DNA of 24,607 nucleotides from a bacterium (GCA_046757025.1 JBHHXN010000069.1:1-24607), one strand, 5' to 3'; positions 991-22,720 are shown, counted from the stretch's first letter. Notes: a model not told the origin generated them from the sequence alone. Program-made: numbers and translations.

Positions 991-1047
991 GATTAATCCA
1001 TGTGTTGAGTTAGGTGAAATATTTGTTCAAACAAGTTAGATGATTTT

Positions 1048-2619: not shown

Positions 2620-2656
2620 TAGCTCACTTTTCTAAAGCGATGAATTTTCTAAACGA

Positions 2657-4277: not shown

Positions 4278-4286
4278 TTGTTTACT

Positions 4287-4733
4287 TTAGCGTTCTTTTG
4301 CGACCGAATTGGTTTGATCGGCAGACAACAAAGTGGCAAGTGTGAGTGAGCCGTGTTTACCCCGATCAGTCCAGTCCACGGTCACCGAGACTTTGTTTAA
4401 GCCGGGCACGGCTGACCACTCCGATGTCTGTACCTGGCAATTGAAAATTTTCTGGTCGAATTTGATGAGTTTGTTTTCTGACATTAAACTTGCCGATGGC
4501 TTTAATTCTATTTTTGATAACAAGTTCTCGGCTATCTCAAGGGCGGGTCGATAATAATGCTGACGAAATTGTAAAACGTGCACCGACTTCTGGCATACCT
4601 GAATGAGGGCAATCATACCGAAAGACAGAAGTGCCAGCGCCAGCAGCGCCTCAAACAGCACAAAGCCGTTTTCAGAGGTTTTGATCGTCTGTTGAGCGCA
4701 CATCAATTTGTTCATTTTTGAATCGTATTTCAT
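4287..4733 (-). CDS. gspI: Minor pseudopilin, GspI-like
   Basis: The prepilin motif ...SENG|FVLFEALLALALLSFGMIALI is present. The product is small (about 125-148 aa depending on the start). Alternative starts exist at 4715 and 4703. The gene overlaps the 3' end of gspH, which indicates translational coupling. Confidence 0.5.
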   Translation of the reverse strand: MKYDSKMNKLMCAQQTIKTSENGFVLFEALLALALLSFGMIALIQVCQKSVHVLQFRQHYYRPALEIAENLLSKIELKPSASLMSENKLIKFDQKIFNCQVQTSEWSAVPGLNKVSVTVDWTDRGKHGSLTLATLLSADQTNSVAKER

Positions 4734-5160
4734 ATTTTCTACCTTGTTTAGTCACCAGGCTAATTGAATCCAGTGGATACATGCCATCAACTGACCAGAA
4801 AAGCACGACATCGAACGGCCGCAGTTCGAGTCCATCGATCAGCCTTTGCTTTTTCATGACTTGCCATTGTTCATGAACCGGCTCAGCCAGTTTGGTTGAA
4901 GAAATCACTTTAGTTTGCCGTTCAATGGTAAAGCCGGTTCCGTCAGACCAAATTTTAAAACGACGTTGCTGTCCCGTGAATAGGGTTTGCTCATGAATCA
5001 TTTGTAATTCTTCGGCGATGCCTTCCGCTGTGTTTTTTAATTGCATTTCCTGGTAGGAATTTGATAATCGCGGACTCATGGCTGCAATCAACAAACCTAA
5101 AATGAGCAACGTCAGGCATAATTCGATGAGAGTCAGACCACGGTCATTGTCCAGAAGCAT
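4672..5160 (-). CDS. gspH: Minor pseudopilin, GspH-like
   Basis: The ORF track extends to 5256. The ATG at 5160-5158 has a GGGAGG Shine-Dalgarno sequence 9 nt upstream (minus strand, 5175-5170). It gives the leader MLLDNDRG|LTLIELCLTLLILGLLIAA, a typical 8-aa prepilin leader. This start overlaps the gspG stop by 17 nt. Confidence 0.55.
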   Translation of the reverse strand: MLLDNDRGLTLIELCLTLLILGLLIAAMSPRLSNSYQEMQLKNTAEGIAEELQMIHEQTLFTGQQRRFKIWSDGTGFTIERQTKVISSTKLAEPVHEQWQVMKKQRLIDGLELRPFDVVLFWSVDGMYPLDSISLVTKQGRKYEIRFKNEQIDVRSTDDQNL

Positions 5161-5599
5161 CGTCATGGGCCTCCCAATTTGTGACATCGTCGTCGCCGCC
5201 TTTTTGCAGGTCCGGACCGAAAGAAACCAAATCATAACTGTCCGGATTGTTTTCACCCGGGCAGGTGTAAATGTACTCTTGTTTCCAGGGATCTTTTAAA
5301 TTGGTATTTTTTTTCAGATAGGGTCCTTGCCAGGAAACCGGTAGAGGTGGTGTGTCTGGCTTTCTAAGTAGAGCCTCTAACCCCTGCTCGGTCGTCGGGT
5401 AGATACCGTTATCTAAAAAATACAACTCTAAAGCCATGGCCAGATTGGCATTGATGTCGGCATGTGCGGCTGCCCGCCTGGCCTGTTCAGTGCGCCCGGC
5501 AAATTGCGGCACCACCAGTGCCACCAGGATGCCCAGTATGATAACCACCATCATGACCTCGATAAGTGTGAGGCCGGCTTCATTTTGCAATTTTGTCAT
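5144..5599 (-). CDS. gspG: Major pseudopilin GspG (type II secretion system protein G)
   Basis: The leader is MTKLQNEAG|LTLIEVMMVVIILGILVALVVPQF. The C-terminal signature KDPWKQEYIYTCPGENNPDSYDLVSFGPDLQKGGDDD matches the GspG hallmark (DPWGNPY.Y..PG....YDL.S.G.DG..GG.). Confidence 0.8.
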   Translation of the reverse strand: MTKLQNEAGLTLIEVMMVVIILGILVALVVPQFAGRTEQARRAAAHADINANLAMALELYFLDNGIYPTTEQGLEALLRKPDTPPLPVSWQGPYLKKNTNLKDPWKQEYIYTCPGENNPDSYDLVSFGPDLQKGGDDDVTNWEAHDDASGQ

Positions 5600-5626
5600 G
5601 ACCCAGGTCCTTTCGTTTGCATGATC

Positions 5627-7117
5627 TTACCGCACCACGATCATTCTTTTAGTTTGCTCAAAATTTTTTGTTTTTAAGCAGTAGAGATAAATGCCCGACG
5701 GCACAGGCTGTCCCGCCTCGTTTAAGCCATCCCACTTTTGATAATAAATTCCAGCCTGTTGTTCACGGCTAATCAGGGACCGCACTTTTTGCCCCAGTAA
5801 GTTAAATATTTCTAATTTCGTTAAGGCTTCAAATGGCAGCTCATATCGAATAACACTGCCTTGATTGAAAGGATTTGGATAGTTTTGTGAAAGCGAATAT
5901 TTTGCCGGCAGTGTCAGCGCTTGCGCCGAGACATCTTGTTTGTTGAATTCATCGTTTTCCCGGGCTTGACTTTGTTGCGCTGAGTTTGGAAATTTAAATT
6001 CCACTTCGTCGGATGGGGGGCTTTCTTCAAATAGAGTCGGTCCATACGCGGTTATGGCAATATAATAGGTGCTTTGCACAGATAAGCTGATTTCTTTTTC
6101 AGTGACCAAACCGACATCGATATGATGAGTATAGTTACCACTGGATAAACCGTAATGAATTCGATAGCCGGCCAGGTCCGGCTCCGTGTTTGGATTCCAG
6201 CTCACTCGCACTGTTTTAAAATCATTTTTGATTTCATGAAAAATGACTTTCCGCACTTTTAAATTCAAATCCTGATTCTTTTTTGGATTGGAATAATCAT
6301 TGGTGAACACGAAATAAAGCAACGTATCCGATTTGTTCGGTGTCATCTGTGCGAGAGACAACACCTGCCATTTGAGCGACGTGACCTGTTTTTCTTCTAA
6401 AAGATTTCGAGGGCCGTTCACTGCCAAACCGATATTCGGCCAGCGGTTAGCTGCGGTATCGGCGCTCACTTCTGCTTCGATTAAAAAACTCGAATACGGT
6501 ACAGAAGATATCGGACAGGCGATCCAGGCATTCTTTTTTTTGCCCAGACCCCAGACCACCACGTGATCATTTTCCACACTCACATTTTTTGAGAATTGCA
6601 TTTGTGCAGCAGGAATCGTGAAATATTCCTGAACAATTTTTTTAAACCGGACCGTTCGAATTCTCAAGTTGAGATCCTGCTTTTTTTTGCGTTTGTAGAA
6701 GTCGTTTGTGAAAACAAAATAAATTGAAGAGTCATTTTTATCAGGCGTAAATTGCCCTAGTGTAAGCCAGTGCCAGTCTACAGACAATACGCGTTTTTCT
6801 ACCTGCAAATTGCTGGAATCGTTAAATGCCACGGCAATATTAGGCCAGCGATTGGCGGCGGTGTCCGCGCTCACTTCCACTTCGACTGAAAAGTTCGAAA
6901 AGGGTAGGACCGCTAACGAAATAGCAATCCAGGCATACTTATTTCGTCCCATTCCCCAGATCACAACATGATCGCCTTCTGCAGTCACATTTCGAGAAAA
7001 TGTCATTTCGGATGCCGGCACAAGTAACTCCTGGTTGAGCGGTTGCCCCAGGCTAATTCTGCAAAGCGCAATCAGGATGACCAAAATTGAAATTTTCGTT
7101 AAAGTTGCTGCTAACAT
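5627..7117 (-). CDS. Secreted multidomain protein: signal peptide, two tandem copies of an unassigned ~133-aa domain, a fibronectin type III domain and a T9SS (Por) C-terminal sorting domain
   Basis: The N-terminal signal peptide is MLAATLTKISILVILIALCRISLG. The duplicated domain spans aa 33-165 and aa 168-300 and shares the motif EVSADTAANRWPNI. An FN3-like block follows (VRVSWNPNTEPDLAGYRIHYG...YYIAITAYG). The C-terminus, LSQNYPNPFNQGSVIRYELPFEALTKLEIFNLLGQKVRSLISREQQAGIYYQKWDGLNEAGQPVPSGIYLYCLKTKNFEQTKRMIVVR, fits the type-A T9SS CTD consensus (NYPNPFN..T.I.Y.L......L.IY...G..V..L......AG.......WDG.N..G..V.SG.Y.Y.L). Confidence 0.75.
   Translation of the reverse strand: MLAATLTKISILVILIALCRISLGQPLNQELLVPASEMTFSRNVTAEGDHVVIWGMGRNKYAWIAISLAVLPFSNFSVEVEVSADTAANRWPNIAVAFNDSSNLQVEKRVLSVDWHWLTLGQFTPDKNDSSIYFVFTNDFYKRKKKQDLNLRIRTVRFKKIVQEYFTIPAAQMQFSKNVSVENDHVVVWGLGKKKNAWIACPISSVPYSSFLIEAEVSADTAANRWPNIGLAVNGPRNLLEEKQVTSLKWQVLSLAQMTPNKSDTLLYFVFTNDYSNPKKNQDLNLKVRKVIFHEIKNDFKTVRVSWNPNTEPDLAGYRIHYGLSSGNYTHHIDVGLVTEKEISLSVQSTYYIAITAYGPTLFEESPPSDEVEFKFPNSAQQSQARENDEFNKQDVSAQALTLPAKYSLSQNYPNPFNQGSVIRYELPFEALTKLEIFNLLGQKVRSLISREQQAGIYYQKWDGLNEAGQPVPSGIYLYCLKTKNFEQTKRMIVVR
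6218..7021 (-). repeat. Intragenic tandem duplication (2 x ~400 bp) encoding the two paralogous domains of the T9SS-CTD protein
   Basis: Nucleotide-level similarity is visible. For example, 6436-6480 (gccagcggttagctgcggtatcggcgctcacttctgcttcgat) matches 6840-6884 (gccagcgattggcggcggtgtccgcgctcacttccacttcgac). The protein-level alignment of the two copies is about 45-50% identical. Confidence 0.7.
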
Positions 7118-7147
7118 ATTTTCACTTTTGATTTGATATGAATAAAA

Positions 7148-7924
7148 TCAAAATAAATTAACTGAACCGTTTAAGGTGTTTCCATAAATGAGCACCAATA
7201 GGGCTCCTGCACCCAGAAAAGGTCCAAATCGAATTTCCCGAGTGTGCCGGGATTCCGGCCGGATCCCCATTCGAACGCATCCAAACACTACGCCAGAAAA
7301 GGCCGCCACCATGATGGTCGTGAGTCCGAGCTGCCAACCCAGAAAGGTTCCGATCATGGCCGCAAATTTGATGTCGCCTCCGCCCATGACCTCCGGCTTT
7401 CGAAAAATAAATTCACCCAGCCGGCCACTGGCATAGAGAAATCCACCACAAAGCAACAGGCCCCAAATGGGGTCGGTCAGTTTAAGCGATGAAAGAATTC
7501 CCGCCAGTGCGACTCCGGCTGCTATACCAGTGAGGGTTATTTTATCTGGAATGATTTTATGTTCTAAATCCATATACACCCCGACAACCAGCAGCCCTGC
7601 GAATAGCCAATTCGACAAAAGGATTTTAACATCGGAGAACTGGCTAAAAAGGAGTATGAATACCAGGCCGGTGATGGTTTCCAGGATGGGATATTTTACT
7701 GAAATAGTTTTGTGACAGCAGCGACTTTTACCGTGCAATAATAAGTATCCGAACAAGGGTAATTTTTGCAGCCAGCTCAAATGAGTGCCACAATGGTCGC
7801 AATAGGAGCGACCCAGCACCACGGACTCACCGCGCGGTATTCGAAATGAACACAGCCCGGCAAAACTGCCAACGGCTATACCGATTAAAAAAGTGATTAC
7901 AAATGGAAATATTTTAAAGATCAT
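7148..7924 (-). CDS. gspO: Prepilin peptidase (A24 family, PilD/GspO)
   Basis: The product is a 258-aa polytopic membrane protein with the tetra-Cys motif CDHCGTHLSW...CCHKTIS and Asp-containing loops typical of type IV prepilin peptidases. Its start overlaps the gspF stop by 1 nt. Confidence 0.8.
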   Translation of the reverse strand: MIFKIFPFVITFLIGIAVGSFAGLCSFRIPRGESVVLGRSYCDHCGTHLSWLQKLPLFGYLLLHGKSRCCHKTISVKYPILETITGLVFILLFSQFSDVKILLSNWLFAGLLVVGVYMDLEHKIIPDKITLTGIAAGVALAGILSSLKLTDPIWGLLLCGGFLYASGRLGEFIFRKPEVMGGGDIKFAAMIGTFLGWQLGLTTIMVAAFSGVVFGCVRMGIRPESRHTREIRFGPFLGAGALLVLIYGNTLNGSVNLF

Positions 7925-9141
7925 TATTGCACCACGAAGTCAATTTGAAAAATGGGCATCATCATGGCAAAGACGATAAAGCCAATGACGGCACCTATCA
8001 AAATAATCATGGCGGGCTCAAGGAGCCGCGTGAATAAGGATACCCGGCGTTCCACCTCTTGCTCATTGGATTTAGCTATTCGGTTCAGCACCTTTTCCAG
8101 TTGATTCGTGTCTTCTGCGATAGATATCATTTGCCCCAGGAGAGCGGGTAAATGATCGCCGGCTGCTAGATTGTCTCCCATACGCCCGCCACTTCGGATT
8201 GCTTCTGCCGTTTTACTGAATTCCTGTTGCAGAATTAAATTTTTGCAAGCTGCCACCACGACCTCAAATGCCTGATGAATGGGTACTCCATGAGCGAGCA
8301 GTGCGCTCATGGTACGAGCAAATTGCGTAATCTCTGCCTGGATTATCAGGGAGCCAAAAAACGGCAAACGCAGCTTTAGTTTGTCCAACCTAAGTTTGAA
8401 TTCGTTCTGTGTGTATTTAATTTTAATCATGGTGGCCAGAATCAAACCTGCCAGTAACATCAACGGCCATTGATTTGAAACACTGTTTGAAACCGACAAC
8501 AATATTTTGGTGGGCAGCGGTAGTGTCTGGCCGATTTCATGAAACATGGTCACGATTTGCGGTACCACAAATGTCAGCAGAATGGTGACAGTCAGAATCC
8601 CCATACTCAGCATCAACAGAGGATAAGCCAGAGCGGCGCGAATCTGCTTTTGTACGGAGTCTTCCTTTTCCAGGTAATTGGCCAGATGTTCGAGAACCAA
8701 TTCCAACATCCCGCCGGCTTCCCCGGCTTTGATCATGTTCACGTAAAATTTTGAAAACATACCAGTCCAGGCAGCGCATGCTTCAGAAAAACGGCTGCCG
8801 TCCTGCAGGCGTTCTAAAAGATCGGGTAAAACCCTCGCAAACGATCCTTTCGAAGCTTGCTTTTGCAACAGGAATAAAGCGGAATGCACCGTCATCCCCG
8901 CTTCCAGCATGTTCGCCAATTGTCTGGTAAAAAGTATTACCTCTGATTTATTTTTTCGTGAAATGAGATTCAGAAGGAAACCGGATTTGTGCTCTCTCTG
9001 GCTTTTGAGCGGTACAATCTCCACCGGGAACAGCCCTTTTTCAGCGAGCTGCGCAGCCAGCAAATTGGCGCTTTCTGCTTGCATGGCACCCTGAACCATT
9101 TTTTCAGGGGTCGATCTGGCTAAATATTCAAACATTGGCAT
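7924..9141 (-). CDS. gspF: Type II secretion / type IV pilus inner-membrane platform protein GspF/PilC
   Basis: The 405-aa product has two T2SSF-type repeats and three TM segments. The N-terminal region (...AAQLAEKGLFPVEI...) is typical GspF. It lies 3 nt downstream of gspE. Confidence 0.8.
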   Translation of the reverse strand: MPMFEYLARSTPEKMVQGAMQAESANLLAAQLAEKGLFPVEIVPLKSQREHKSGFLLNLISRKNKSEVILFTRQLANMLEAGMTVHSALFLLQKQASKGSFARVLPDLLERLQDGSRFSEACAAWTGMFSKFYVNMIKAGEAGGMLELVLEHLANYLEKEDSVQKQIRAALAYPLLMLSMGILTVTILLTFVVPQIVTMFHEIGQTLPLPTKILLSVSNSVSNQWPLMLLAGLILATMIKIKYTQNEFKLRLDKLKLRLPFFGSLIIQAEITQFARTMSALLAHGVPIHQAFEVVVAACKNLILQQEFSKTAEAIRSGGRMGDNLAAGDHLPALLGQMISIAEDTNQLEKVLNRIAKSNEQEVERRVSLFTRLLEPAMIILIGAVIGFIVFAMMMPIFQIDFVVQ

Positions 9142-9144
9142 GGA

Positions 9145-10764
9145 TTATTTCTCAACCTCCTGTGTAACACGCAAAACTTCATCTAACGTGGTAATCCCAC
9201 GACTAATCTTTTCGATGCCGTCGTTGCGCAGACTTACCATGCCTTTTTCGATGGCTAATTTACGTAGCTGATTGGCTGGCGTTTTCATCACGATTTGTTC
9301 TCGAATTTCATCGTCGATTTTCATAAATTCGTAGATGGCGGTACGCCCAAAATAGCCGCTCTGTTTGCACATTTCACATCCCCTCCCTCGATATAATGTA
9401 TGATTTCCGCCCCCGAGTTTTCGAAATAACGTTTGCCGACCATTGCGGACATTTTCGCTTTTTTTGCAGTCCGTACAAATTACGCGAACTAATCTTTGCG
9501 CCACGATACATTCAACTGAAGCGGCAATTAAATAAGGCTCGATTCCCATGTTGATGAGTCGGGCCACGGCACTGGCCGCATCGTTGGTGTGAAGAGTGCT
9601 GAATACCAGATGGCCGGTCATGGCCACCTGAATAGTCACCTCGGCAGTTTCATTGTCGCGAATTTCGCCCACGAGCATGACATCGGGATCGTGGCGCAGC
9701 ATGGACCGCAGGCCCTGCGCAAACGTGAGGCCAATTTTAGGGTTCACCTGCACCTGCGAAATGCCGGTCAATTGATACTCGATGGGATCCTCCACCGTGA
9801 TGATTTTTCGCGCACTATCATTGATTTTGTTTAAACAAGAATACAGGGTGGTAGTTTTGCCGCTACCAGTCGGCCCGGTCACCAGGATGATTCCGTGTGG
9901 TTTTTCCAATAACTGTTCGATCAAAATTAAATCCCGCCGCATCAAACCCAGGCTTTCGAGATTTAGGGCTACGTGATTGCTGTTTAAAATTCGGATATTT
10001 ACCGACTCCCCAAAAGGTGTGGGTAAAATTGAAATCCGCAGATCCAATTCCTGCTGGCCTGTGCGCACTTTTATGCGTCCATCCTGAGGAAGCCGCTGTT
10101 CCGCAATGTTTAAATTGGCCATAATTTTGATGCGGGAAACAATGGCAGGATGCAGATGTTGTAGGGATTCCGGTACAGAAACCTCGTAGAGCACCCCATC
10201 AACCCGATAACGGATGCGTAAACGCGATTCATAAGGTTCGATATGGATGTCTGTGGCCCGCTCCTGAAAGGATTCGATGAGCAATTCGTTCACAAAAGCC
10301 ACGATGCTGGCTTCTTCGGATTGCTGTTCAAGGTCGGTTGCATAATCGGCAGTCAGATCAATGTAATGGCTGGCATCGGTTTCATTCAGCATTCGATGGA
10401 CGGTTTCGGCTCCTAAACCGTAGATATGCCGCAATGCCTCTTCAATCTGTTCGGCGTTGGCCTTTAATGGTTCGATCTCCTTTTTTAGAAGCCATTTGAG
10501 TTCATCAAGGGTGGCTAAATCATCAGGTTCCATGGTGGCTATTTGTAACCGATCTCTATCTTCACCCAAAGGAATAATTTTATACTGACAGGCCACCGGT
10601 GCGTCGATGAGATGGTGCAGCGATTTGGATGCCGGAGATTTTAACAGTTGCGACAGTAATACAGCGGCATTTTTATATTTGGATTTCTTATTTTCTGCCA
10701 GCGGCAACGGTTGCTTTACAAGTGTCTTTTTCTTGAGATTTTGGGATTCAGGTAACCAGCTCAA
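9145..10764 (-). CDS. gspE: Type II secretion ATPase GspE (PilB/GspE family)
   Basis: Walker A is GPTGSGKTTTLY. The C-terminal tetra-Cys zinc motif is CTDCKK...CEMCKQSGYFGRT, and the N1 domain motif is present. There is no in-frame ATG near the N-terminus. The ORF track uses the TTG at 10770. The second TTG at 10764-10762 lies 7 nt downstream of a perfect AGGAGG (minus strand, 10777-10772) and is the more likely start. Confidence 0.85.
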   Translation of the reverse strand: MSWLPESQNLKKKTLVKQPLPLAENKKSKYKNAAVLLSQLLKSPASKSLHHLIDAPVACQYKIIPLGEDRDRLQIATMEPDDLATLDELKWLLKKEIEPLKANAEQIEEALRHIYGLGAETVHRMLNETDASHYIDLTADYATDLEQQSEEASIVAFVNELLIESFQERATDIHIEPYESRLRIRYRVDGVLYEVSVPESLQHLHPAIVSRIKIMANLNIAEQRLPQDGRIKVRTGQQELDLRISILPTPFGESVNIRILNSNHVALNLESLGLMRRDLILIEQLLEKPHGIILVTGPTGSGKTTTLYSCLNKINDSARKIITVEDPIEYQLTGISQVQVNPKIGLTFAQGLRSMLRHDPDVMLVGEIRDNETAEVTIQVAMTGHLVFSTLHTNDAASAVARLINMGIEPYLIAASVECIVAQRLVRVICTDCKKSENVRNGRQTLFRKLGGGNHTLYRGRGCEMCKQSGYFGRTAIYEFMKIDDEIREQIVMKTPANQLRKLAIEKGMVSLRNDGIEKISRGITTLDEVLRVTQEVEK

Positions 10765-10869
10765 TTTCAAGCCTCCTATTTTTCGGCTATTAAAAGGGTC
10801 CTTGATCCTGTTCTTGCAATCAATTAGAATTCAATCGAGATTTTAAGCGATGATTTGATTTCCCAGGAA

Positions 10870-11380: not shown

Positions 11381-12509
11381 GAGGATTGTCCTGGGTAGTT
11401 AATGTCAAGGAGACGCGACCAAGTTGTTGATTCAGTTCTGTATGAGGAGCCGCATTTTACCTGCCTGATTGATACCTTGCTAATAAAATTGATTAAATGA
11501 AAGACTATGTTTATGCCATCGTTTCAGATACACGCACTAGAGCCGATATTCAGCTTTATTATAAACCTATATAAACAGGTTCCGCGCATGGGTGTATTTA
11601 GGCACTAAAGAGTAAGACAATGTCAACAGGTGGTACTGCTGTTTGCGCTAATTTTAACAGTGGCAAATGTCATACCTGCTTTGGTGCAAATAAACGATTT
11701 TTTATTTTATTTATTTTTATAATTCCAAATTAAAACATCAGAATGTACAATAGTCCGATTATATTCTACCAACACGGATCCCCTTTCTGAAATCGTCAAT
11801 AAAGACGATTAATTGGAGAATTCTGCGTTAATAAAAAAGAATTGAGTCGTTTCTGTATTCGCTGAAAATAATTGACAAAATGATGATTACAATGTAAAAA
11901 TGTCCTCATGAGAAAAATCCATCGTTAGGGTGTTTTAATGGTCGCAAAATCAACTTCATACGTTGGTGCATAATAAATCTGAAGAAGCGTTGGGGTCCGA
12001 ATTAAGACAGTCTTGAAATAATTGATAATAAGAGTCTTATGTCTGAATAGCATGAAGGCCGCCTTGATTTTCAGGCCGGAATTTGAACAGTTTTACCAAT
12101 TATTTCCGTATGCCAAGTTGAAATGAATTATTTTTAAGTTATTAATTAATAAAAATTAATGTTGTTACCATTTAGTCAATTATTTTGTTGGCACGCTCTT
12201 TGAATTAATAATAATTGTAGCAGAAGAATGAGGATGGAGCAATCATTTGCTTCCGGTATGAGGTTGTGTAAACGGTGGGATTGAGCCAGTCCGAGTGGAG
12301 ATGCAACGAATTCAAGTTCTTTTCTTGTTCCCATCCCTGACAAAATATTAATCCTATTAAAGTTCATATAGCTGGCATTTCGCTGAAGATTGAAGTGAAA
12401 CAACGCAATGTTTTTGTTTATTGCATGCAAATTCTAATCATGCGGCCACTGGATTTTATGTGGAACGCTTAGTTCCATAAATTACTGGGCAAATCAAAGG
12501 GAGGTGAAC

Positions 12510-13460
12510 ATGTCGATACGCAGTGACCAAGTACAAAATAGATGGCAGATGCATGCCTTTCAGCCCCCTAATCAAGCGTTGAAATCGTTGATTGAAAAGG
12601 CAGAAAAAATCGGGGATGGCCTGAACTCAGCCTCAAAGACGCCTTTTGAACGAATTCGTGATCAAGCGGATGCGGAGATGACTGTGGGTCAGATGTCCGC
12701 GATGATTTCTCATGAGTTTCGGAATGCGCTGACTTCCATCAAAATGATTCTCGAGCTTCAAATCGAATCCAGAAATTTAAATCCATCGGAAAAAAAGTCA
12801 CTAAGCGTGGCGCTTAAGTCCATTAACCACATGGTCGATGTTGTCACCCGGCTTCTCAATTTTTCAAGGCCAATGCCTCCTGATTTTCAATGTGAGGACC
12901 TCAATGAAGTGGTAACCGAGAGCCTTCAGTTTGTGAAGACGCAATTAAAAAAAGAAAGAATCACTATTCAACCGGCTTTTGATTCAAACATTCCTACTAT
13001 GTTACTCGATGCCCACCGCATCAAAGAAGCGCTGGTAAATCTCCTTTTAAACGCCATGCATGCTTTAGAAAAGAAAAAACCAGCGGGCGGCAACAGAATG
13101 ATTTCAGTGGCGACTAAAAGACACACCCTTCACCAGGCCCTTAGCGATCGTTCTTATTCGGGTTCGTGCAAAATTCCAAGAAGTGAGGATGGCAATTTTG
13201 ACCAACCCTTCCTGGAATTGGCTGAGGGTACCGAATGTGTTTTAATTGAAATAAAAGACAATGGTGAGGGCATCAATCCCGAGCATTTCCGGCACATATT
13301 TGATCCTTTTTATACCACGAAATCCAGAGGCACCGGACTGGGGCTTGCCATCGTGAAACAAACTATAAATGAGCACGGCGGAATGATTACCATAAACAGT
13401 TTGCTAGGACAGGGAACCACAATTAAATTATATTTACCTTTGCTAAATTGCAGGAGATGA
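12510..13460 (+). CDS. Cytoplasmic sensor histidine kinase (HisKA + HATPase_c, no TM helix and no recognisable sensor domain)
   Basis: The H-box is MISHEFRNALTSI, the N-box LLLNAMHAL, G1 IKDNGEGI and G2 GTGLGLAIV. The ATG at 12510 has a GGGAGG sequence 5 nt upstream. The GTG at 12504 used in the ORF track lies inside that ribosome-binding site. Confidence 0.8.
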   Translation: MSIRSDQVQNRWQMHAFQPPNQALKSLIEKAEKIGDGLNSASKTPFERIRDQADAEMTVGQMSAMISHEFRNALTSIKMILELQIESRNLNPSEKKSLSVALKSINHMVDVVTRLLNFSRPMPPDFQCEDLNEVVTESLQFVKTQLKKERITIQPAFDSNIPTMLLDAHRIKEALVNLLLNAMHALEKKKPAGGNRMISVATKRHTLHQALSDRSYSGSCKIPRSEDGNFDQPFLELAEGTECVLIEIKDNGEGINPEHFRHIFDPFYTTKSRGTGLGLAIVKQTINEHGGMITINSLLGQGTTIKLYLPLLNCRR

Positions 13461-13464
13461 CAAC

Positions 13465-14853
13465 ATGGGTCTCAAAAAAGTGATGTTTGTAGATGATGAC
13501 GATGAAATCCTATTTGCTTTCCGTGAGGTGGTTAAGAAAGAAGGTTATTTACCGGTTGAAGCCCGGGATGGGCAACAAGCATTGGAACAATTCGACCTTG
13601 AAAAACCAGAAGTGATCTTCATGGATGTCTCCATGCCTAACCTGGACGGACTGGAAGCTCTCAAACAGTTTAAAAAGAAAAACCGCTTTATTCCGGTGAT
13701 TATGATTACCGGCAAAGGAAATATGAAAACGGCCATCAATGCCATGAAATTGGGGGCATTCGATTATCTCACCAAACCGTTATCCGTGAAAAAAGTGCGT
13801 CAATCGATTGCTCAGGCCCTGTCCAGCTCAAAAAAATCTTCAGCAAAACCAATACACTTCGACGCAGAGACCATGGATCGTCACGAGCTCATCGGAGTCA
13901 GCGATGTGATGCAGAATGTCTACAAACTAATTGGTTCGATTTCAGTGACACCGAACCACACTTCTGTTTTGATCACCGGTGAAAGCGGCACCGGCAAGGA
14001 ATTGGTCGCTCGTGCCATTCATAAAAACGGCCCTCATGCGGAAGAGCCCTATATGGCGGTTAATTGTACAACCTTACCGGAGAATCTGCTGGAATCCGAA
14101 CTTTTTGGCCATGAGAAAGGCGCTTTTACAGGCGCGGCTCAGAGAAAATTAGGTAAATTTGAAGTGGCTGGATGTGGAACGATTTTTCTGGATGAAATTG
14201 GCGATCTGTCAACCGCACTGCAACAAAAATTGTTACGCGTGCTACAGGAACGTCAGTTTGAGAGATTAGGAGGACACGATCAAATCGAAGTCCAGGCGCG
14301 CTTTGTCGCTGCCACCAATCAAAACATCGCTGAGAGTACCATAAACGGCCGTTTTCGCGAAGACTTATTTTATCGTTTGAACGTAGCAACCATTCATTTG
14401 CCGCCTTTGAGAGAACGCAAGGAAGACATCGTTTTGCTCGCCTACTATTTTCTGACAAAATATAACCATCAATTTAATAAAGCCATAAACGGTTTTTCAA
14501 AACAGGCCCTGTCGCTTTTGCAAGCTTATTCCTATCATGGCAATGTTCGCGAACTGGAAAACCTCATCGAACGTGCGGTGATGTTGACCCAGGGCAAGGT
14601 AATCCTTCCTGAAATATTCAGTGAAATGTTTACACCACCGGCTCCGGAAGCGACTCTCCTTCCCATAATCAGCTCGGTATTTAAAGAATCCCGTGAACAC
14701 CTTTTGAATCAGTTCGAGAAGCAGTTTGTAACCGAGCAGCTCACCAAAAATTGTGGGAATGTCAGTGCGGCCGCAAGAATGAGCCAAATGTCCCGCCAAA
14801 ACTTTCATCGACTGCTATCCAAGCACCAAATCCAACCGGAGCGCCTGATCTGA
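13465..14853 (+). CDS. Sigma-54-dependent response regulator (NtrC/PilR family: REC, AAA+ and HTH domains)
   Basis: Receiver domain is VDDDDE...FMDVSMP...LTKP. The AAA+ domain has Walker A GESGTGKE and the GAFTGA sigma-54 contact motif (EKGAFTGAAQ). The C-terminus carries a Fis-type HTH. The start lies 4 nt after the histidine kinase stop. Confidence 0.85.
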   Translation: MGLKKVMFVDDDDEILFAFREVVKKEGYLPVEARDGQQALEQFDLEKPEVIFMDVSMPNLDGLEALKQFKKKNRFIPVIMITGKGNMKTAINAMKLGAFDYLTKPLSVKKVRQSIAQALSSSKKSSAKPIHFDAETMDRHELIGVSDVMQNVYKLIGSISVTPNHTSVLITGESGTGKELVARAIHKNGPHAEEPYMAVNCTTLPENLLESELFGHEKGAFTGAAQRKLGKFEVAGCGTIFLDEIGDLSTALQQKLLRVLQERQFERLGGHDQIEVQARFVAATNQNIAESTINGRFREDLFYRLNVATIHLPPLRERKEDIVLLAYYFLTKYNHQFNKAINGFSKQALSLLQAYSYHGNVRELENLIERAVMLTQGKVILPEIFSEMFTPPAPEATLLPIISSVFKESREHLLNQFEKQFVTEQLTKNCGNVSAAARMSQMSRQNFHRLLSKHQIQPERLI

Positions 14854-17175: not shown

Positions 17176-17471
17176 ATAACCTCCTTACCTTATAATTTAA
17201 TGGTTACTAATAAATGGTGATAGTAAAAATTATTAATATAAATGTCAATTATTAAATTCAAACAAATGAGGATTTGGAATTGTTCCAATAATGTTGATTA
17301 AAATGGTGCTGGCATAAATCAATGGGTTTTGGAGCTGTGAAAAATTAAGTGCTAAATTAAAAATCAAAGTAATATAATAAGAATACATTAATAATTTAAT
17401 AAATCACTTGATAATTAATAAATAATTTAATATTTTATCAGAAATAATTTTATGCAGATGAATCTGTTTGG

Positions 17472-17480
17472 TGATATAAT
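17472..17480 (+). promoter_or_regulatory. Candidate extended -10 sigma-70 promoter (TGaTATAAT) for amt-glnK(-glnA)
   Basis: A perfect TGnTATAAT sits at 17472-17480, about 80 nt upstream of the amt start codon in a very AT-rich spacer. I found no sigma-54 -24/-12 match in this spacer. Confidence 0.3.
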
Positions 17481-17562
17481 ATTGACTAAAAAATGAATGT
17501 CTCATCGAAATGTAATCGTTTTCAATAATTGGGGTTAATCCTTTTTAACAATAGAGGCTGAA

Positions 17563-18882
17563 ATGCAAAGAGTTACTGGATTCTGTTTTTTGTGGCTGGT
17601 CTTGACTTGTGAATATGTTTGGGCGTCACCGTCCTCTTCCAATCCATCCATAGCGATAGATACCTTGTGGGTGCTGCTGGCGGCATTTTTGGTGTTTTTT
17701 ATGCAAGCCGGATTTGGCATGGTGGAAGCCGGTTTGATTCGCGCGAAAAACGCGGGTAATATTCTGATGAAAAATATGCTGGATTTCTGTATGGCCTCGT
17801 TGGGATTTTTTCTCTTTGGCTACGCCCTGATGTTTGGCGGAACCGAACCTTTTTTTGGTACCGAGGGCTGGTTTTTAACTGGCGTACAGGCCCCCAACGA
17901 TTTACCTCTGTACGCATTCTGGATGTTTCAGGCGGCGTTTTGTGGCGCGGCCGCTACCATCGTAGCAGGGGGCATGGCGGAACGCATGAAATTCGTGGCC
18001 TACCTCATGTATTCCTTCGTTATTTCAGCGCTGGTTTATCCCATTGTCGGTCACTGGATTTGGGGAGGCGGCTGGCTGGCAAATCTCAATTTTCATGATT
18101 TTGCTGGTTCAACTGTGGTGCATACGCTTGGCGGTTTTGCGGCTTTGGTGGGTACCATCATTCTCAAGCCGCGCACGGGTAAATTCAATTCGGATGGCTC
18201 GCCCAATTTTATTGCGGGTCACAACATGCCGCTGGTTTCGCTGGGAGTCTTTATTTTGTGGTTTGGCTGGTTCGGTTTTAATCCCGGCTCAACCCTTGGC
18301 TTTGGGGATCCGGGACAGGTAGCGCGCATCGCGATCAATACCAGTCTGGCTGCGGCCGCGGGCGCCATTGCCGCCATGTTCACGGCCTGGGGAAAATTCG
18401 GCAAACCGGACTTAGCGTTGACTTTGAATGGCGCTTTGGCCGGTTTGGTGGCCATCACTGCGCCCTGTTCGGTGGTTACGCCCGGCAGCGCCATTTACAT
18501 CGGCGGCATTGGCGGTGTGCTTTGTATTTTAGGTGTACGCTGGCTCGATCGCCTACGGATCGATGATCCCGTGGGCGCGGTGCCGGTGCATGGCTTGAAC
18601 GGCGTCTGGGGCACCTTGGCAGTCGGACTATTCGGTCAGATAGCGCTCGGGGCACCCCATGACGGTCTTTTTTATGGCGGTGGATTTCTGCAATTAGGCA
18701 TTCAGTCGCTGGGTATTTTCGCGGTGATCATTTTCGTCGTCGCCTCCATGTGGCTGATTTTCAAAACCATCGACGCCCTGGTCGGCCTGCGCGTTTCCGA
18801 AGTGGATGAATTGCGGGGGTTGGACATCGGGGAACACGGTATGGAATCGTACAGCGGATTTCAGATTTTTTTAACAGAATGA
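17563..18882 (+). CDS. amt: Ammonium transporter (Amt/MEP family)
   Basis: The 439-aa product has a signal peptide followed by 11 TM helices. Amt signatures include LVFFMQAGFGMVEAGLIR, WIWGGGWL and HTLGGFAALVGTIILKPR. Confidence 0.9.
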   Translation: MQRVTGFCFLWLVLTCEYVWASPSSSNPSIAIDTLWVLLAAFLVFFMQAGFGMVEAGLIRAKNAGNILMKNMLDFCMASLGFFLFGYALMFGGTEPFFGTEGWFLTGVQAPNDLPLYAFWMFQAAFCGAAATIVAGGMAERMKFVAYLMYSFVISALVYPIVGHWIWGGGWLANLNFHDFAGSTVVHTLGGFAALVGTIILKPRTGKFNSDGSPNFIAGHNMPLVSLGVFILWFGWFGFNPGSTLGFGDPGQVARIAINTSLAAAAGAIAAMFTAWGKFGKPDLALTLNGALAGLVAITAPCSVVTPGSAIYIGGIGGVLCILGVRWLDRLRIDDPVGAVPVHGLNGVWGTLAVGLFGQIALGAPHDGLFYGGGFLQLGIQSLGIFAVIIFVVASMWLIFKTIDALVGLRVSEVDELRGLDIGEHGMESYSGFQIFLTE

Positions 18883-18928
18883 TTGAATCCATGTAATTTA
18901 AATCAATTAAAGATTGAGAGAACCCCTT

Positions 18929-19270
18929 ATGAAACTCATTATTGCAACCATTCAACCGCATCAACTACCGGCTGTAAAAAAGTCGCTATTTGATGCCCAG
19001 GTCTACAAAATAACCGTCTCCAATGCGCTGGGATGCGGCGAAGAAAAAGGATATCATGAAACTTTTCGAGGGGTAGAGCACGAAGTGAGCTTGCTCAAGA
19101 AAGTGCGTTTGGAGATTGCGGTTAACGAGGATTTTGTGGAGCCCACCATCGCGGCGATCATCAAAGGCGCGCGCACTAACCAGGTTGGGGACGGCAAAAT
19201 TTTCGTGTTGGACTTGCAGGAGTGCATTCGAATTCGTACAGGCGAGCGTGGCGGGCAGGCCATTGGTTGA
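18929..19270 (+). CDS. glnK: P-II family nitrogen regulatory protein (amt-linked, GlnK-type position) with a non-canonical T-loop
   Basis: The 113-aa product aligns to GlnB/GlnK without gaps. Conserved motifs include GDGKIFV, IRIRTGE and K58. The ATG at 18929 has a GAGAG sequence upstream. The ORF track instead uses a TTG at 18914. Confidence 0.75.
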
Positions 19271-19373: not shown

Positions 19374-20813
19374 ATGGACTTGAAAAACGGCCAACACGTA
19401 ACGGTTCGCGAAGTCAATCGCACCATCAAAGAAGCTGAAATCCGATTCGTAGATTTAAAATTTGTAGATTTGCCGGGTGTACTGCAGCACATCACCCTGC
19501 CCATCGAAGTGTTCGATGAGAAAATGTTTATTGAAGGCGTGGGGTTCGACGGGTCCTCTATTCGAGGTTTTCAGCGCATTCATGAAAGCGATATGCTCAT
19601 CGTGCCGGACCGCTCCACCATGTTTGTGGACCCGTTTATGGATGACTCCACGCTGTCCTTTCTCTGCAACATCAAAGATCCACAGACCCATAAAATCTAT
19701 TCGCGCGACGCCCGGGCCGTGGCGCAACGGGCAGAACGATTTCTGATCTCAGAAGGCATTGCCGACCTTGCCTACTTCGGGCCCGAGCTGGAATTTTTCA
19801 TTTTTGACGATGTGCGCTACAATCAGACCACCAACGAGGGGTACTATTTTCTGGATTCCAGTGAAGGTTCCTGGAACACGGGGCGCGTCGAGAAGCCCAA
19901 TCTCGGGCACAAACCGCGCAACAAAGAAGGGTATTTTCCGGTGCCGCCCATGGACAGCTATCAGAATCTGCGATCAAAAATGGTTAGTGTGTTGCGTTCG
20001 GTGGGTGTGGAGGCCGAAGCCCACCATCACGAAGTGGCCTCGGGTGGGCAGTCGGAAATCGACATCAAATACAACACCATGGTGCACATCGGCGACCAGG
20101 CCATGAAATACAAATACGTGATCAAAAATGTCGCTCAGCGTTATCACAAAACCGTGACCTTCATGCCGAAGCCGCTGTTTCAGGATAACGGCTCCGGGAT
20201 GCATGTGCACATCAGTTTGTGGAAAAATGGCCGCAATCTATTTTATGAGACCGGCAAATATGCCGAACTCAGCGACTTTGCCGAATACTTCATCGGCGGC
20301 TTGCTGCACCATGCCCCCACTCTCTGTGCTTTTTGTGCCCCGACTACCAATTCGTACCGGCGATTGGTTCCAGGCTATGAAGCGCCGATCAATCTGATTT
20401 ACTCGCAGAGTAATCGCAGCGCTTGTGTGCGCATCCCCATGTATTCCGGCAGTGAAAAAGCCAAGCGTATCGAGTTCCGCACGCCCGATCCTTCGTGCAA
20501 TCCCTACATCGCTTTTGCCGCTATTTTGATGGCCGGCCTGGATGGCATCGAAAATCGTATGCAACCGCCGCCACCTATCGATAAAGACATTTACGAGCTG
20601 GCAAAAAACGGCGGCCCGGCAATCGCCAGCACCCCGGGCTCGCTGGAAAAAGCCATTCAGGCGCTGGAAGACGATCATGCGTTTTTGCTGCGCGGCGGGG
20701 TGTTTACCAAAGACCTGATCCGGGTGTGGCTGGATTACAAGCGGGAACGGGAAATAGACTATATTCGATTGAGACCGCATCCCAGCGAATTTGCCCTGTA
20801 CTACGATGTTTGA
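19374..20813 (+). CDS. glnA: Glutamine synthetase type I (GlnA)
   Basis: The 479-aa product carries GS motifs: the N-terminal beta-grasp region, GSGMHVHISLW, the ATP-binding region KPLFQDNGSGMH, and NPYIAFAAILMAGLDG. The real start is the ATG at 19374 (MDLKNGQHV...). The longer track ORF beginning at 19116 overlaps glnK and has no homology over that extension. Confidence 0.9.
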   Translation: MDLKNGQHVTVREVNRTIKEAEIRFVDLKFVDLPGVLQHITLPIEVFDEKMFIEGVGFDGSSIRGFQRIHESDMLIVPDRSTMFVDPFMDDSTLSFLCNIKDPQTHKIYSRDARAVAQRAERFLISEGIADLAYFGPELEFFIFDDVRYNQTTNEGYYFLDSSEGSWNTGRVEKPNLGHKPRNKEGYFPVPPMDSYQNLRSKMVSVLRSVGVEAEAHHHEVASGGQSEIDIKYNTMVHIGDQAMKYKYVIKNVAQRYHKTVTFMPKPLFQDNGSGMHVHISLWKNGRNLFYETGKYAELSDFAEYFIGGLLHHAPTLCAFCAPTTNSYRRLVPGYEAPINLIYSQSNRSACVRIPMYSGSEKAKRIEFRTPDPSCNPYIAFAAILMAGLDGIENRMQPPPPIDKDIYELAKNGGPAIASTPGSLEKAIQALEDDHAFLLRGGVFTKDLIRVWLDYKREREIDYIRLRPHPSEFALYYDV

Positions 20814-20942: not shown

Positions 20943-22238
20943 ATGTCTCAGATAATTGGCATAAGCATTGCCGGTGGAATCGTCATGGTCATGCTTATGA
21001 TCGTGTTTATCAAAGCCAATCTGGTGATTTGCCAGCCCAACGAAGTGTTGATCATTTCAGGCAGAAGGCGTAAATTGCCGGACGGTACCATACTCGGTTA
21101 TCGAGTCTTAAAGGGGGGTAGGGGATTCAAAATACCGATCATTGAGTCGGTGAAACGCCTGGAGCTCACCATCATGCCCATTGAAATTAGTATCAAAAAG
21201 GCCCTGGCAAAAGGCATCATTCCCATCAATGTGGATGGCCGTGCAAATGTCAAAATAGCCGGCACCGAAAAAGAAGGGTTGTCCAATGCCATCGAGCGGT
21301 TTCTGGGGAAAAATCTCAACGAGATTGCACAGGTAGCCAAAGAGACCATCGAAGGCAGCTTGCGCGGAGTGCTGGCGACCGTGTCGCCGGAAGAGGCAAA
21401 CAGCCAGCGTTTAGCGTTGGCAGACCAGGTGACCGAGCAAGCCAGCAAAGATCTGCTAAAACTCGGCCTGGTATTGGACTTTGTGAAGATTCAGAACATA
21501 TCGGATGATCAAGGCTACCTGGAAGCCATCGGCCGCAAGAAAAATGCCGAAGTGGTGAAGAACGCCCGCATTGCCGAAGCTACCGCCGAGGCCGAAGCCC
21601 GCATGGTCACCGCCGAGGAAAAACGCAAAGGCAGCGTGGCCGAAGCCGCAGCGGAAATGGAGATTTCGGAAGCCGAAAATAAGCTGAAAGTACACCGAGC
21701 AAAACTGGCTGCGGAAAGCAATCAGGCGGACGAACGAGCTAAAATCGCTGGCGAGCTGACGCGAATTGACGAACAGCAAAAACTGGAAACCAATCGCGTC
21801 GAGCTCAATCGCAAAAAGTACCAGGCGGAAATCGTGGTTCCGGCCGAGGCTGAAAAACAAGCTGAAGAATTGAAAGCCCGGGGCGAAGCCGCCAAAATTC
21901 TGGAGGACGGAAAAGCCACGGCTGAAGCCATAAAACTCATGCAGACCCAGTGGCAAGATGGTCACACCCGGGATTTGTTCCTCATTCAAATGCTGCCAGA
22001 ACTGCTGGACAAAGTCACCAAAGTGGTGGCGGACAATCTCCACATTGAAAAGCTGACGGTGCTGGACTCAGGTGATGGTAACGGCTTGCCCACTCACATT
22101 AAGAACTTAACTGGTTCGGCAGTAACCATATTAGAACAGTTGAAAAACACCACGGGCATTGATTTGCCCGGTATTTTGAAGAGCGCAAGTACTAAAAATA
22201 AAAAGAACGGCAGTGAAATTCCCAAGGAGCTCATCTGA
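20943..22238 (+). CDS. Flotillin-like SPFH/band-7 domain protein
   Basis: An N-terminal TM helix and an SPFH domain are followed by a long Ala/Glu-rich coiled coil (EA repeats), typical of the YqiK/FloT family. An AGGAGG sequence lies 6 nt upstream of the start. Confidence 0.8.
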   Translation: MSQIIGISIAGGIVMVMLMIVFIKANLVICQPNEVLIISGRRRKLPDGTILGYRVLKGGRGFKIPIIESVKRLELTIMPIEISIKKALAKGIIPINVDGRANVKIAGTEKEGLSNAIERFLGKNLNEIAQVAKETIEGSLRGVLATVSPEEANSQRLALADQVTEQASKDLLKLGLVLDFVKIQNISDDQGYLEAIGRKKNAEVVKNARIAEATAEAEARMVTAEEKRKGSVAEAAAEMEISEAENKLKVHRAKLAAESNQADERAKIAGELTRIDEQQKLETNRVELNRKKYQAEIVVPAEAEKQAEELKARGEAAKILEDGKATAEAIKLMQTQWQDGHTRDLFLIQMLPELLDKVTKVVADNLHIEKLTVLDSGDGNGLPTHIKNLTGSAVTILEQLKNTTGIDLPGILKSASTKNKKNGSEIPKELI

Positions 22239-22720
22239 TGCAAACGCCTAAGTTGGATGAAATCGATTTAAAACTTCTCGAGGCTTTACAAGCGCACGGT
22301 CGTAAAAAGCGCAACGAATTGGCTGAAATGGTCAAGCTCTCGGTACCGGCCATTAGCGAGCGCATGCGTAAATTGGAAGAAGCCGGGGTAATTCGCAGCT
22401 ACAACACCGTGCTGGATCCCCGAAAAATCGCGCTGGAAGTTACTGCGTTCATTTTTGTGATCTCGGAATCTTCCAAGTACTATTCAAAAATCATCGATTG
22501 CGCCATGGCCAATGACCAGGTGCAGGAATGTCACGCTATCACCGGGGAGGGATCACACCTGCTCAAAGTGCACACCCAAAGCACTGCCACGCTGGAAAAG
22601 CTGCTGTCGCAAATTCAGTCGTGGCCCGGGGTGTTGCACACTCGCACGGATGTGGTGCTTTCCAGCCCGAAAGAAACCACGGTACTGCCGCTGGGGCATT
22701 TGCAGAAATCTGCAGGATGA
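22238..22720 (+). CDS. Lrp/AsnC-family transcriptional regulator
   Basis: An N-terminal HTH (DLKLLEALQAHGRKKRNELAEMVKLSVPAISERMRKLEEAGVI) is followed by a RAM/AsnC_trans_reg domain. The start codon overlaps the flotillin stop (TGATG at 22236-22240). An AAGGAG sequence lies 7 nt upstream. Confidence 0.8.
   Translation: MQTPKLDEIDLKLLEALQAHGRKKRNELAEMVKLSVPAISERMRKLEEAGVIRSYNTVLDPRKIALEVTAFIFVISESSKYYSKIIDCAMANDQVQECHAITGEGSHLLKVHTQSTATLEKLLSQIQSWPGVLHTRTDVVLSSPKETTVLPLGHLQKSAG

Follow-up and report, generated by a model that had tools for sequence, protein, structure and literature searches.

How does a P-II protein receive its signals when the T-loop residues through which its model homologues are modified and bind their ligands have been replaced? 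P-II proteins are central carbon, nitrogen and energy sensors of bacteria, archaea and plastids, and variation in their signal input is of general interest. The question is raised by a bacterial DNA stretch of 24,607 nucleotides (GCA_046757025.1 JBHHXN010000069.1:1-24607, hereafter the window), in which a P-II gene next to an ammonium transporter gene (amt) encodes a T-loop with Glu38-Glu39, Phe46 and His51 instead of the Arg38-Gln39, Tyr46 and Tyr51 of Escherichia coli GlnB. The analysis reported here suggests that the product is a functional, unmodified GlnK, predicted to plug the co-encoded Amt under the control of nucleotides and 2-oxoglutarate (2-OG), with Glu38 and Glu39 serving as latches, a reading which we hold with moderate confidence. 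The features of the gene, in window positions, are as follows.

18929..19270, + strand: GlnK-type P-II gene, from ATG 18929 to the stop at 19270; 113 amino acids plus stop (open reading frame (ORF) list, raw sequence, Pfam)
19031..19093, + strand: T-loop, residues 35-55, read off the sequence; canonical length, gapless against E. coli GlnB and GlnK
19040..19045, + strand: Glu38-Glu39 codons GAA GAA, read off the sequence; both invariant in 84 clade members
19064..19066, + strand: Phe46 codon TTT, read off the sequence
19067..19069, + strand: Arg47 codon CGA at the T-loop tip, read off the sequence; its E. coli counterpart plugs the AmtB pore
19079..19081, + strand: His51 codon CAC, replacing the modifiable Tyr51, read off the sequence
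19175..19198, + strand: B-loop T83-N84-Q-V86-G-D-G-K90, an intact nucleotide-binding motif with Asn84 and Val86 instead of the usual Gly84 and Ile86

Authenticity of the gene

The T-loop coordinates (19030-19090) and transcription given by a first-pass annotation of the window agree with the raw sequence, in which residues 35-53 occupy 19031-19087. The start was placed at ATG 18929 and an in-frame TTG at 18914 was rejected, because all 120 closest homologues begin with MKL and nearly all of them have 113 residues. ORFs on the minus strand across the T-loop region are shadows of the P-II gene.

An unusual T-loop of this kind could in principle be an assembly or sequencing artefact or the mark of a decaying gene, an explanation that deserves almost no credence. 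Sequencing error, frameshift and gene decay are excluded because a separately assembled Logan contig codes for the very same protein, because 84 of the 200 different full-length family members gathered by the protein search and from species genomes carry E38-E39, because comparison with nine orthologous genes gave proportions of synonymous differences (pS) of 0.71-0.90, which is near saturation, against 0.06-0.15 for non-synonymous ones (pN), i.e., a pN/pS of 0.07-0.19 that indicates strong purifying selection, and because GAA and GAG both occur at codons 38 and 39 across the orthologues. In addition, the frame is intact, the length is canonical and the core motifs are all present. The suspicion of a frameshift or sequencing error could therefore be removed, and the T-loop is genuine.

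Assignment to the P-II family and predicted fold

The protein matched the Pfam P-II profile (PF00543) with 86.3 bits (cut-off 25; E = 2e-24) over profile positions 1-102 of 102. The gapless alignment to GlnB and GlnK and the conserved body that had been noticed in the first pass proved correct: the alignment to E. coli GlnB covers 112 positions with 44% identity (40% to GlnK; further references were proteins of S. elongatus, B. subtilis, M. jannaschii and A. aeolicus, and Thermus and M. mazei sequences from PDB-search alignments), and K58, GDGKIFV and IRIRTGE are all present. A regular expression of the PROSITE PS00638 type, which we take to be the C-terminal/B-loop P-II signature [ST]-x3-G-[DY]-G-[KR]-[IV]-[FW]-[LIVM]-x2-[LIVM], matches from residue 83, as it does in the controls, E. 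coli GlnB and GlnK. The PS00496-type expression, presumably the Tyr51 motif Y-[KR]-G-[AS]-[AE]-Y, matches these controls and finds no match in the window protein, which reads FRGVEH at this place. The NCBIfam equivalog cut-offs were missed by a wide range (NF008111 for GlnB, 94.3 vs 202 bits; NF007946 for GlnK, 93.5 vs 181 bits), no curated subfamily model claims the protein, and the sources name such proteins only 'P-II family nitrogen regulator'.

GlnK-type proteins carry Leu3 together with Ile, Thr or Met at position 5, and GlnB-type proteins Lys3 together with Asp or Glu5; the window protein has the GlnK-type residues L3 and I5. GlnK has also been defined operationally as the product of a P-II gene in an operon with amt (PMC3198391), and this linkage is found here. 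Judged by its profile match, fold, B-loop signature, amt linkage, L3/I5 and R47, the protein appears to belong to the P-II family and its GlnK subgroup, and it seems to lie outside the GlnD-modified P-II proteins, the enterobacterial equivalogs and NifI. An identity as NifI1 or NifI2 was considered and rejected: the chains of PDB entry 9p1x ('P-II family nitrogen regulatory protein' by molecule name), which we take to be probably of NifI type, match at only E = 2e-9 and 5e-9, compared with 1e-29 for GlnKs; the T-loop has the canonical length, that of NifI1 being shortened and that of NifI2 extended; and there are no nif genes in the window.

An AlphaFold2 (AF2) model based on a 68-sequence alignment (mean predicted local distance difference test, pLDDT, 90.9) has the P-II fold of the ferredoxin-like beta-alpha-beta kind, with strands and helices at E2-8, H10-22, E29-35, E56-65, H67-81 and E90-95, and the T-loop modelled as a beta-hairpin (42-46/49-53) with R47-G48 at its tip. 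All 50 matches listed by Foldseek against the PDB were P-II/GlnK structures (probability 1.00; template modelling (TM) score 0.78-0.91), and the lowest whole-chain root-mean-square deviation (rmsd), 1.6 A, was obtained for M. thermolithotrophicus GlnK1-dADP (7p4v), Af-GlnK3-MgADP (3ta1) and E. coli GlnK from the AmtB complex (2ns1_B). The model is consistent with an Amt-binding conformation, which may reflect what the predictor has learned. The side-chain nucleotide ligands T29, K90, R101 and R103 are conserved in the family.

Residues 38, 46, 47 and 51 of the T-loop

The first-pass annotation had concluded that the protein cannot be regulated by canonical uridylylation or adenylylation of Tyr51, and the absence of the YRGAEY motif supports this conclusion. 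The absence of Tyr51 as such turned out to be the rule and not an exception, since only 44 of the 111 representatives of the nearest 50%-identity P-II clusters possess this residue. According to the review by Merrick, only the Proteobacteria and Actinobacteria have glnD throughout, its occurrence elsewhere being sporadic, modification is on record for just four groups of the P-II tree, and E. coli GlnK Y51A still regulates AmtB with an almost wild-type response to nitrogen status (PMC4285133). As Tyr51 is in the minority and the distribution of glnD is restricted, the lack of Tyr51 is expected for this lineage. GlnD and GlnE domains were not detected in any ORF of the 24.6-kb contig. Position 51 is His in 68 of 84 sequences of the E38-E39 type (hereafter EE) and in 89 of 103 sequences of the related Q38-Q39 type (QQ), the remainder having R, K or Q; because these residues are tolerated, it is improbable that His51 has become a modification site in place of Tyr51.

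From the replacement of Arg38-Gln39, residues in contact with ATP and 2-OG, a probably altered sensing of both ligands had been deduced, which was overstated as regards Arg38. Position 38 is R in 78 of the 111 representatives and Q, G, E, S etc. in the others. Methanococcales GlnKs have Ile38 and contact the nucleotide at this position through the backbone only (PMC8395244), and in Archaeoglobus fulgidus GlnK3 the residue is Glu38, salt-bridged in the ADP state to Lys101 across the nucleotide cleft, and this protein binds MgATP, MgADP and 2-OG all the same (PMC3198391). Arg38 is thus not a required ligand. Position 46 within the EE clade is F in 56 sequences and Y in 28. Arg47 is found in 84/84 EE sequences, 101/103 QQ sequences and 110/111 of the nearest cluster representatives. 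This case confirms that Tyr51 modification and Arg38 mark the model Proteobacteria and not the whole P-II family, and that in most lineages the GlnK-Amt valve is driven by ligand binding alone.

Distribution and evolution of the subfamily

The suggestion that the protein represents a distinct P-II subgroup, with its linkage to amt and usually glnA retained, was supported by both searches. The protein search returned at least 8000 matches, the top 120 of which have 77-100% identity and fall into two T-loop types, one with [FY]RGV-HEV and the other GCGQQKGYTETYRGVIHEVNL. A scan of one genome per species identified at least 530 stretches encoding relatives of the window protein, and all locus counts given here refer to the best 79 of them. 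Their sources are metagenome-assembled genomes (MAGs) assigned to Omnitrophota, Planctomycetota, Acidobacteriota, Elusimicrobiota, Caldisericota, Calditrichia and unclassified bacteria. Almost every one of these loci has an Amt gene immediately 5' of the P-II gene, and a glutamine synthetase (GS) gene is often nearby, several loci having the amt-P-II pair without an adjacent type I glnA; amt takes the same place in four additional contexts of the clade (L081-L083 and L085).

Family-wide features include IQPH at positions 8-11 (i.e., Gln9 and not Lys or Arg9), Cys36, Arg47, His51 (~80-86%), Lys58, GDGK, Cys99, R101, R103 and a C-terminal AIG. Among 187 members (84 EE and 103 QQ sequences), T29, E44, R47, K58, G87-D-G-K90, F92, R101 and R103 are invariant or nearly so. 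In a neighbour-joining (NJ) tree of 50%-identity cluster representatives and reference sequences, built without bootstrap, the E38-E39 proteins form one clade nested inside the Q38-Q39 family, and the proteins closest to this clade are of the E38-Q39 type (P0068, L040); the GlnB/GlnK of proteobacteria and cyanobacteria (FGRQK...YRGAEY) are found at the opposite side of the tree, and the Thermus type (HGGET) occupies a separate branch. E38-Q39 intermediates were found in L007, L038, L040, L045 and P0068. Named members of the EE clade come from candidate division KSB1, Calditrichia and a 'Bacteroidota' MAG.

The amt-linked Q38-Q39/His51 family shares with the window protein 73-81% identity, a length of 113 residues, IQPH at 8-11, Cys36, His51, Cys99, AIG and the upstream Amt gene. 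It differs in having Q38-Q39, K12, T43, Y46, I50, N54, G84 and I86, where the diagnostic residues of the EE clade are E38-E39, Q12, H43, F/Y46, E/Q/D50, T54, N84 and V86. On these sequence comparisons, the window protein can be placed in an uncharacterised and very widespread amt-linked P-II subfamily and, within it, in an E38-E39/N84 clade. A literature search on P-II proteins in KSB1 or Caldithrix or on the E38-E39 clade yielded no relevant publication, and no cultured or characterised member could be identified by member names in the nearest 50%-identity clusters, which consist almost wholly of metagenome proteins without a name.

Genomes of this subfamily may contain several P-II genes. 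Two or three tandem amt-P-II pairs with differing T-loops were observed in L013, L016, L026, L053, L057, L065 and L074; such tandem pairs are present in many Omnitrophota and Planctomycetota genomes, for example a Q38-Q39/His51 type beside R38-Q39 types like GCGRQKGITEVYRGVKEMDNL. In L017, L031 and L067, P-II paralogues with a T-loop shorter by 7 residues occur near amt, L017 having also an extended-T-loop one (NifI-like); these short- and long-loop paralogues have only 31-36% identity.

The 2-oxoglutarate site and the proposed mechanism

Gln39 is the position of most interest, as it couples Mg2+, 2-OG and Lys58. In the MgATP/2-OG complex its side-chain oxygen is the sixth ligand of Mg2+ (PMC3198391; PMC8395244), and in ADP complexes its amide forms a hydrogen bond with Lys58 at the position of the 2-OG gamma-carboxylate (PMC3198391). 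Glu39 is present in 11 of the 111 nearest cluster representatives, including the solved Thermus thermophilus P-II (G38, E39, V51). It is uncommon but recurrent, and the replacement of Gln39 by Glu appears from these alignments to be the only mildly unusual change in the ligand site. Glu39, an isostere of Gln39, could still ligate Mg2+.

The preferred mechanism is that of the GlnK proteins in many phyla without GlnD, acting as a trimeric P-II. With ADP bound (low energy, or low 2-OG as a sign of nitrogen sufficiency), the T-loop would extend as a hairpin and Arg47 at its tip would enter the cytoplasmic exit of the co-encoded Amt, thereby blocking transport; MgATP, probably together with 2-OG, would rearrange the loop base and release Amt. 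No covalent modification would be involved, and residue 51 (His, sometimes Arg, Lys or Gln) might provide a polar contact. Glu38 is predicted to pair with Arg101 of the neighbouring subunit, like Glu38-Lys101 in A. fulgidus GlnK3, and Glu39 with Lys58, where Gln39 sits in ADP complexes, whereas in the ATP/2-OG state Glu39 could still serve as the sixth Mg2+ ligand.

Several observations do not fit comfortably with such a conventional response. Compared with the QQ sequences, the EE clade has a basic residue at position 40 in 61/84 vs 102/103 sequences (Fisher p = 2e-8) and Gly41 in 76/84 vs 103/103 (p = 0.001), differences that are hints and not proof, as shared ancestry is not taken into account in these tests. 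E38-E39-E40 is present in nine EE sequences, GCGEEEGY is found in some members, and residues 36-44 carry a net charge of -2.3 in EE as against 0 in QQ. The B-loop residue Asn84 is absent from all 111 nearest cluster representatives; it is present in 81/84 EE and 4/103 QQ sequences, the latter having mostly G84 (92/103). Moreover, the modelled loop conformation may merely echo the training structures, and glnA and the gene for a Band7 protein are linked to the P-II gene as tightly as amt within the clade, by which Amt need not be the only target. Taken as hints from sequence, the shift of constraint in the 2-OG loop and Asn84 would be more easily reconciled with an altered effector response than with an unchanged one. 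The two groups are equally diverse (mean pairwise identity 0.82 for EE vs 0.84 for QQ; mean column entropy 0.50 vs 0.48), and EE is looser at positions 43, 46, 50 and 54 and tighter at 42, 52 and 53.

These observations bear on another explanation, which we consider unlikely though worth serious attention, namely that the effector site has been remodelled such that the protein is blind to 2-OG and reports only the ATP/ADP ratio to Amt, or binds a different, less anionic ligand. The Glu39 carboxylate would permanently hold the Lys58 site and, together with Glu38, Asn84 and an acidic loop base, exclude the dianionic 2-OG. A carboxylate would be a closer mimic of 2-OG than the Gln39 amide found at this site in ADP complexes; the relaxed positions 40 and 41 are those whose backbone amides bind 2-OG, and the third Glu at position 40 in some members and the charge of -2.3 point in the same direction, although Glu is isosteric with Gln and a good Mg2+ ligand, by which the quaternary MgATP/2-OG complex may still form, and G37, L56, K58 and G87 are invariant. 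N84 and V86 are clade-specific changes of the B-loop, and changes of residue 86 abolish 2-OG binding in S. elongatus P-II according to work mentioned in PMC3198391; however, V86 is conservative, and swaps of residue 86 in Af-GlnK left 2-OG binding unchanged (PMC3198391). A 2-OG-insensitive GlnK has a precedent in Af-GlnK2, but Glu38 alone is compatible with 2-OG binding in Af-GlnK3 (PMC3198391). The comparison of constraint between EE and QQ is not corrected for phylogeny, and a literature search on Q39E or Q39A P-II variants found no relevant paper and hence no Q39E mutant data.

A Myxococcales relative is also pertinent. Protein P0148 (L085 6001-6345, MAG JACKEK010000057.1; also in L086) is encoded in the same amt-P-II-glnA-Band7 operon and has kept an acidic EE T-loop, GRGEEKGYFETFRGVGHEV, but its B-loop reads SDPEGIVMV instead of xVGDGKIFV, PEGIVM replacing GDGKIF. 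It may be a P-II protein that no longer binds ATP or ADP, and its sequence shows that loss of the nucleotide motif is tolerated in the lineage in at least one case.

Accordingly worded for the whole E38-E39/N84 clade, the idea of a rebuilt pocket, in which Glu39, helped by Glu38, replaces 2-OG at Lys58 and Mg2+ and 2-OG is sensed differently or not at all, must be regarded as tentative and rather doubtful. If true, it would provide a natural valve on Amt that follows energy charge alone, or else a sensor for some other ligand, across KSB1/Calditrichia-type bacteria and within an amt-glnK-glnA-Band7-lrp module. A natural and widely conserved Q39E variant, accompanied by Asn84, would lend itself to testing how the switch at residue 39 sets 2-OG sensitivity.

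Two cysteines of the subfamily should also be mentioned. Cys36 (19034-19036) is present in 173/187 and Cys99 (19223-19225) in 187/187 of the EE plus QQ sequences. Cys36 lies at the T-loop base and Cys99 just before R101/R103 of the C-loop, elements which face each other across the inter-subunit nucleotide cleft. By analogy with SbtB, it is conceivable that they form a redox-sensitive pair.

Gene neighbourhood and possible partners

The gene cluster around the P-II gene is composed of the following members.

17563..18882, + strand: amt, ammonium transporter, 439 amino acids (Pfam Ammonium_transp 436 bits; TIGR00836 455 bits, above cut-off)
19374..20813, + strand: glnA, type I glutamine synthetase, 479 amino acids (TIGR00653 637 bits, above cut-off)
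20943..22238, + strand: Band7/SPFH protein, 431 amino acids (Pfam Band_7 89 bits), a conserved cluster member in the E38-E39 clade
22238..22720, + strand: Lrp/AsnC-family regulator, 160 amino acids (Pfam HTH_24 and AsnC_trans_reg), its start overlapping the Band7 stop codon

The end of amt is separated from the P-II gene by 46 nt on the same strand. The closest solved relatives of its product are Amt proteins, with the DFAGSTVVH and VPVHG twin-His motifs in the alignment, and this Amt is the presumed target of the P-II protein. ATG 19374 is the true start of glnA, a 479-aa gene being likewise called on the independent contig L080. The nearest solved structures of the window GS are of the GSI-beta type (Synechocystis 3ng0, M. 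tuberculosis 2bvc and Salmonella 1f1h).

With such neighbours, the main partner of the T-loop might be GS or the Band7 protein instead of Amt, the clade residues H43, F46, E50 and T54 reflecting that partner; this possibility, argued by analogy, seems improbable. The closest solved relative by sequence is indeed the M. mazei GlnK1 of the GS-GlnK1 complex (8tge_J, E = 9e-30, 52% identity), a complex made almost wholly by T-loop residues (PMC10651883), but the M. mazei GS is of the GSI-alpha type while the window GS is nearest to GSI-beta, and the GlnK1 contacts I45, Y46, A48 and M49 (canonical numbering) are not conserved in the window protein. The clade-diagnostic changes do cluster in the arms of the T-loop (positions 43, 46, 50 and 54), and glnA follows the P-II gene in most loci, as does Band7 in the EE clade; nevertheless, in the family as a whole the P-II gene is paired with amt far more universally than with glnA, and shared nitrogen regulation alone predicts a glnA next to amt-glnK. 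Amt remains the predicted partner in the preferred reading.

A Band7/SPFH (flotillin-like) gene of about 430 codons directly follows amt-glnK(-glnA) throughout the EE clade and in some relatives; it was found downstream of amt-P-II(-glnA) in L001-L004, L007, L021, L040, L081-L083 and L085, the gene order in L083 being amt-P-II-Band7-GSIII. To our knowledge, no role has been described for an SPFH protein in amt-glnK operons, and this conserved gene offers a minor lead of its own on how ammonium uptake is organised at the membrane. The Lrp/AsnC regulator, which often comes next with its start overlapping the Band7 stop, is conserved after Band7 in L002, L003, L021 and L082 and is present in L005.

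The 387 nt before amt (17176-17562) are very AT-rich and contain repeated TTAATAA/AATAAT-like motifs, and no element of the sigma-54, TnrA/GlnR or Rfam type could be recognised in them; the Lrp/AsnC protein encoded in the cluster is a candidate regulator of this region. A search for the sigma-54 promoter consensus gave no match upstream of amt, and the window had fewer matches than its shuffles; sigma-70 and terminator scans of the window remained at chance level. The Rfam scan, which covered the whole window, yielded no RNA family, i.e., no glutamine riboswitch or glnA RNA near the cluster. Further upstream, a short histidine kinase (12504-13460, + strand; HisKA plus HATPase, sensor domain not recognisable) and an NtrC-like sigma-54-dependent response regulator (13465-14853, + strand) form a pair 2.7 kb 5' of amt. 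This pair (12504-14853) was considered as part of the module and rejected, as similar pairs precede amt in no loci other than L037 and L039 and are missing from all close EE loci; lone sigma-54 activators occur near amt in L025, L040 and L078.

T or S45 is nearly invariant in the T-loop. Genes for Ser/Thr kinases (Pkinase plus TPR) were noticed 4-10 kb 5' of amt-glnK in three relatives (L081 377-2392, L082 1-1914 and L085 1-1905), and L082 has also an FHA-SpoIIE phosphatase gene upstream of amt-glnK. The window contains no Ser/Thr protein kinase gene of that kind, and the occurrence in three relatives is probably a coincidence, such kinases being abundant in these phyla.

The remaining part of the window includes a type II secretion/type IV pilus-like cluster (454-10770, minus strand; GspE ATPase, GspF, prepilin peptidase, GspG, J, K and a PilM-like protein). 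A protein encoded inside it (5627-7117) combines a CBM60 module with a C-terminal sorting domain of the Por/T9SS type, which fits an uncultured organism of the FCB group (KSB1/Calditrichia-like).

Relationship to characterised P-II proteins

E. coli GlnK and its AmtB complex (PDB 2NS1, 2NUU) share with the window protein the length (112-113 residues, aligned without gaps at 40% identity), an amt-adjacent gene, L3 with I or T5, R47 at the tip, K58, GDGKIF, R101 and R103, in addition to the rmsd of 1.6 A between the AF2 model and AmtB-bound GlnK. The gene order is glnK-amtB in E. coli but amt-glnK in the window, where Tyr51 and the YRGAEY uridylylation motif are lacking, and R38-Q39, K9, K12 and G84 of E. 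coli correspond to E38-E39, Q9, Q12 and N84. M. mazei GlnK1 (PDB 8TGE), the best PDB match by sequence, is likewise unmodified, is encoded in a nitrogen-assimilation gene context and shares Y42, E44 and R47. It differs in having A38-Q39, a retained Tyr51 and a two-residue insertion in the B-loop, and its partner is a GSI-alpha, bound via a helical T-loop.

The two proteins that bear most directly on the Glu residues are those of A. fulgidus and T. thermophilus. A. fulgidus GlnK3 (PDB 3T9Z, 3TA0-3TA2) is also amt-linked and unmodified, has Glu38 and is a structural match with a TM score of 0.82-0.88; at ~42% identity, it has kept Gln39 and binding of MgATP/2-OG has been demonstrated, whereas the window protein has Glu39 and is known from its sequence. 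T. thermophilus TT1020 (PDB 1UFL, 1V3S, 1VFJ), the second-best PDB match by sequence (E = 9e-29, 51% identity), has Glu39, Gly instead of Arg38, Val instead of Tyr51 and a similar helix 2 region of the 'AVNE-FVEPT' type, but differs in its T-loop, GHGGETERVETYRGTTVKM, its separate NJ branch, G84 and the lack of Cys36 and Cys99. For each unusual residue of the window protein, a precedent can be named among the solved P-II proteins, and the standard mechanism is the most probable one.

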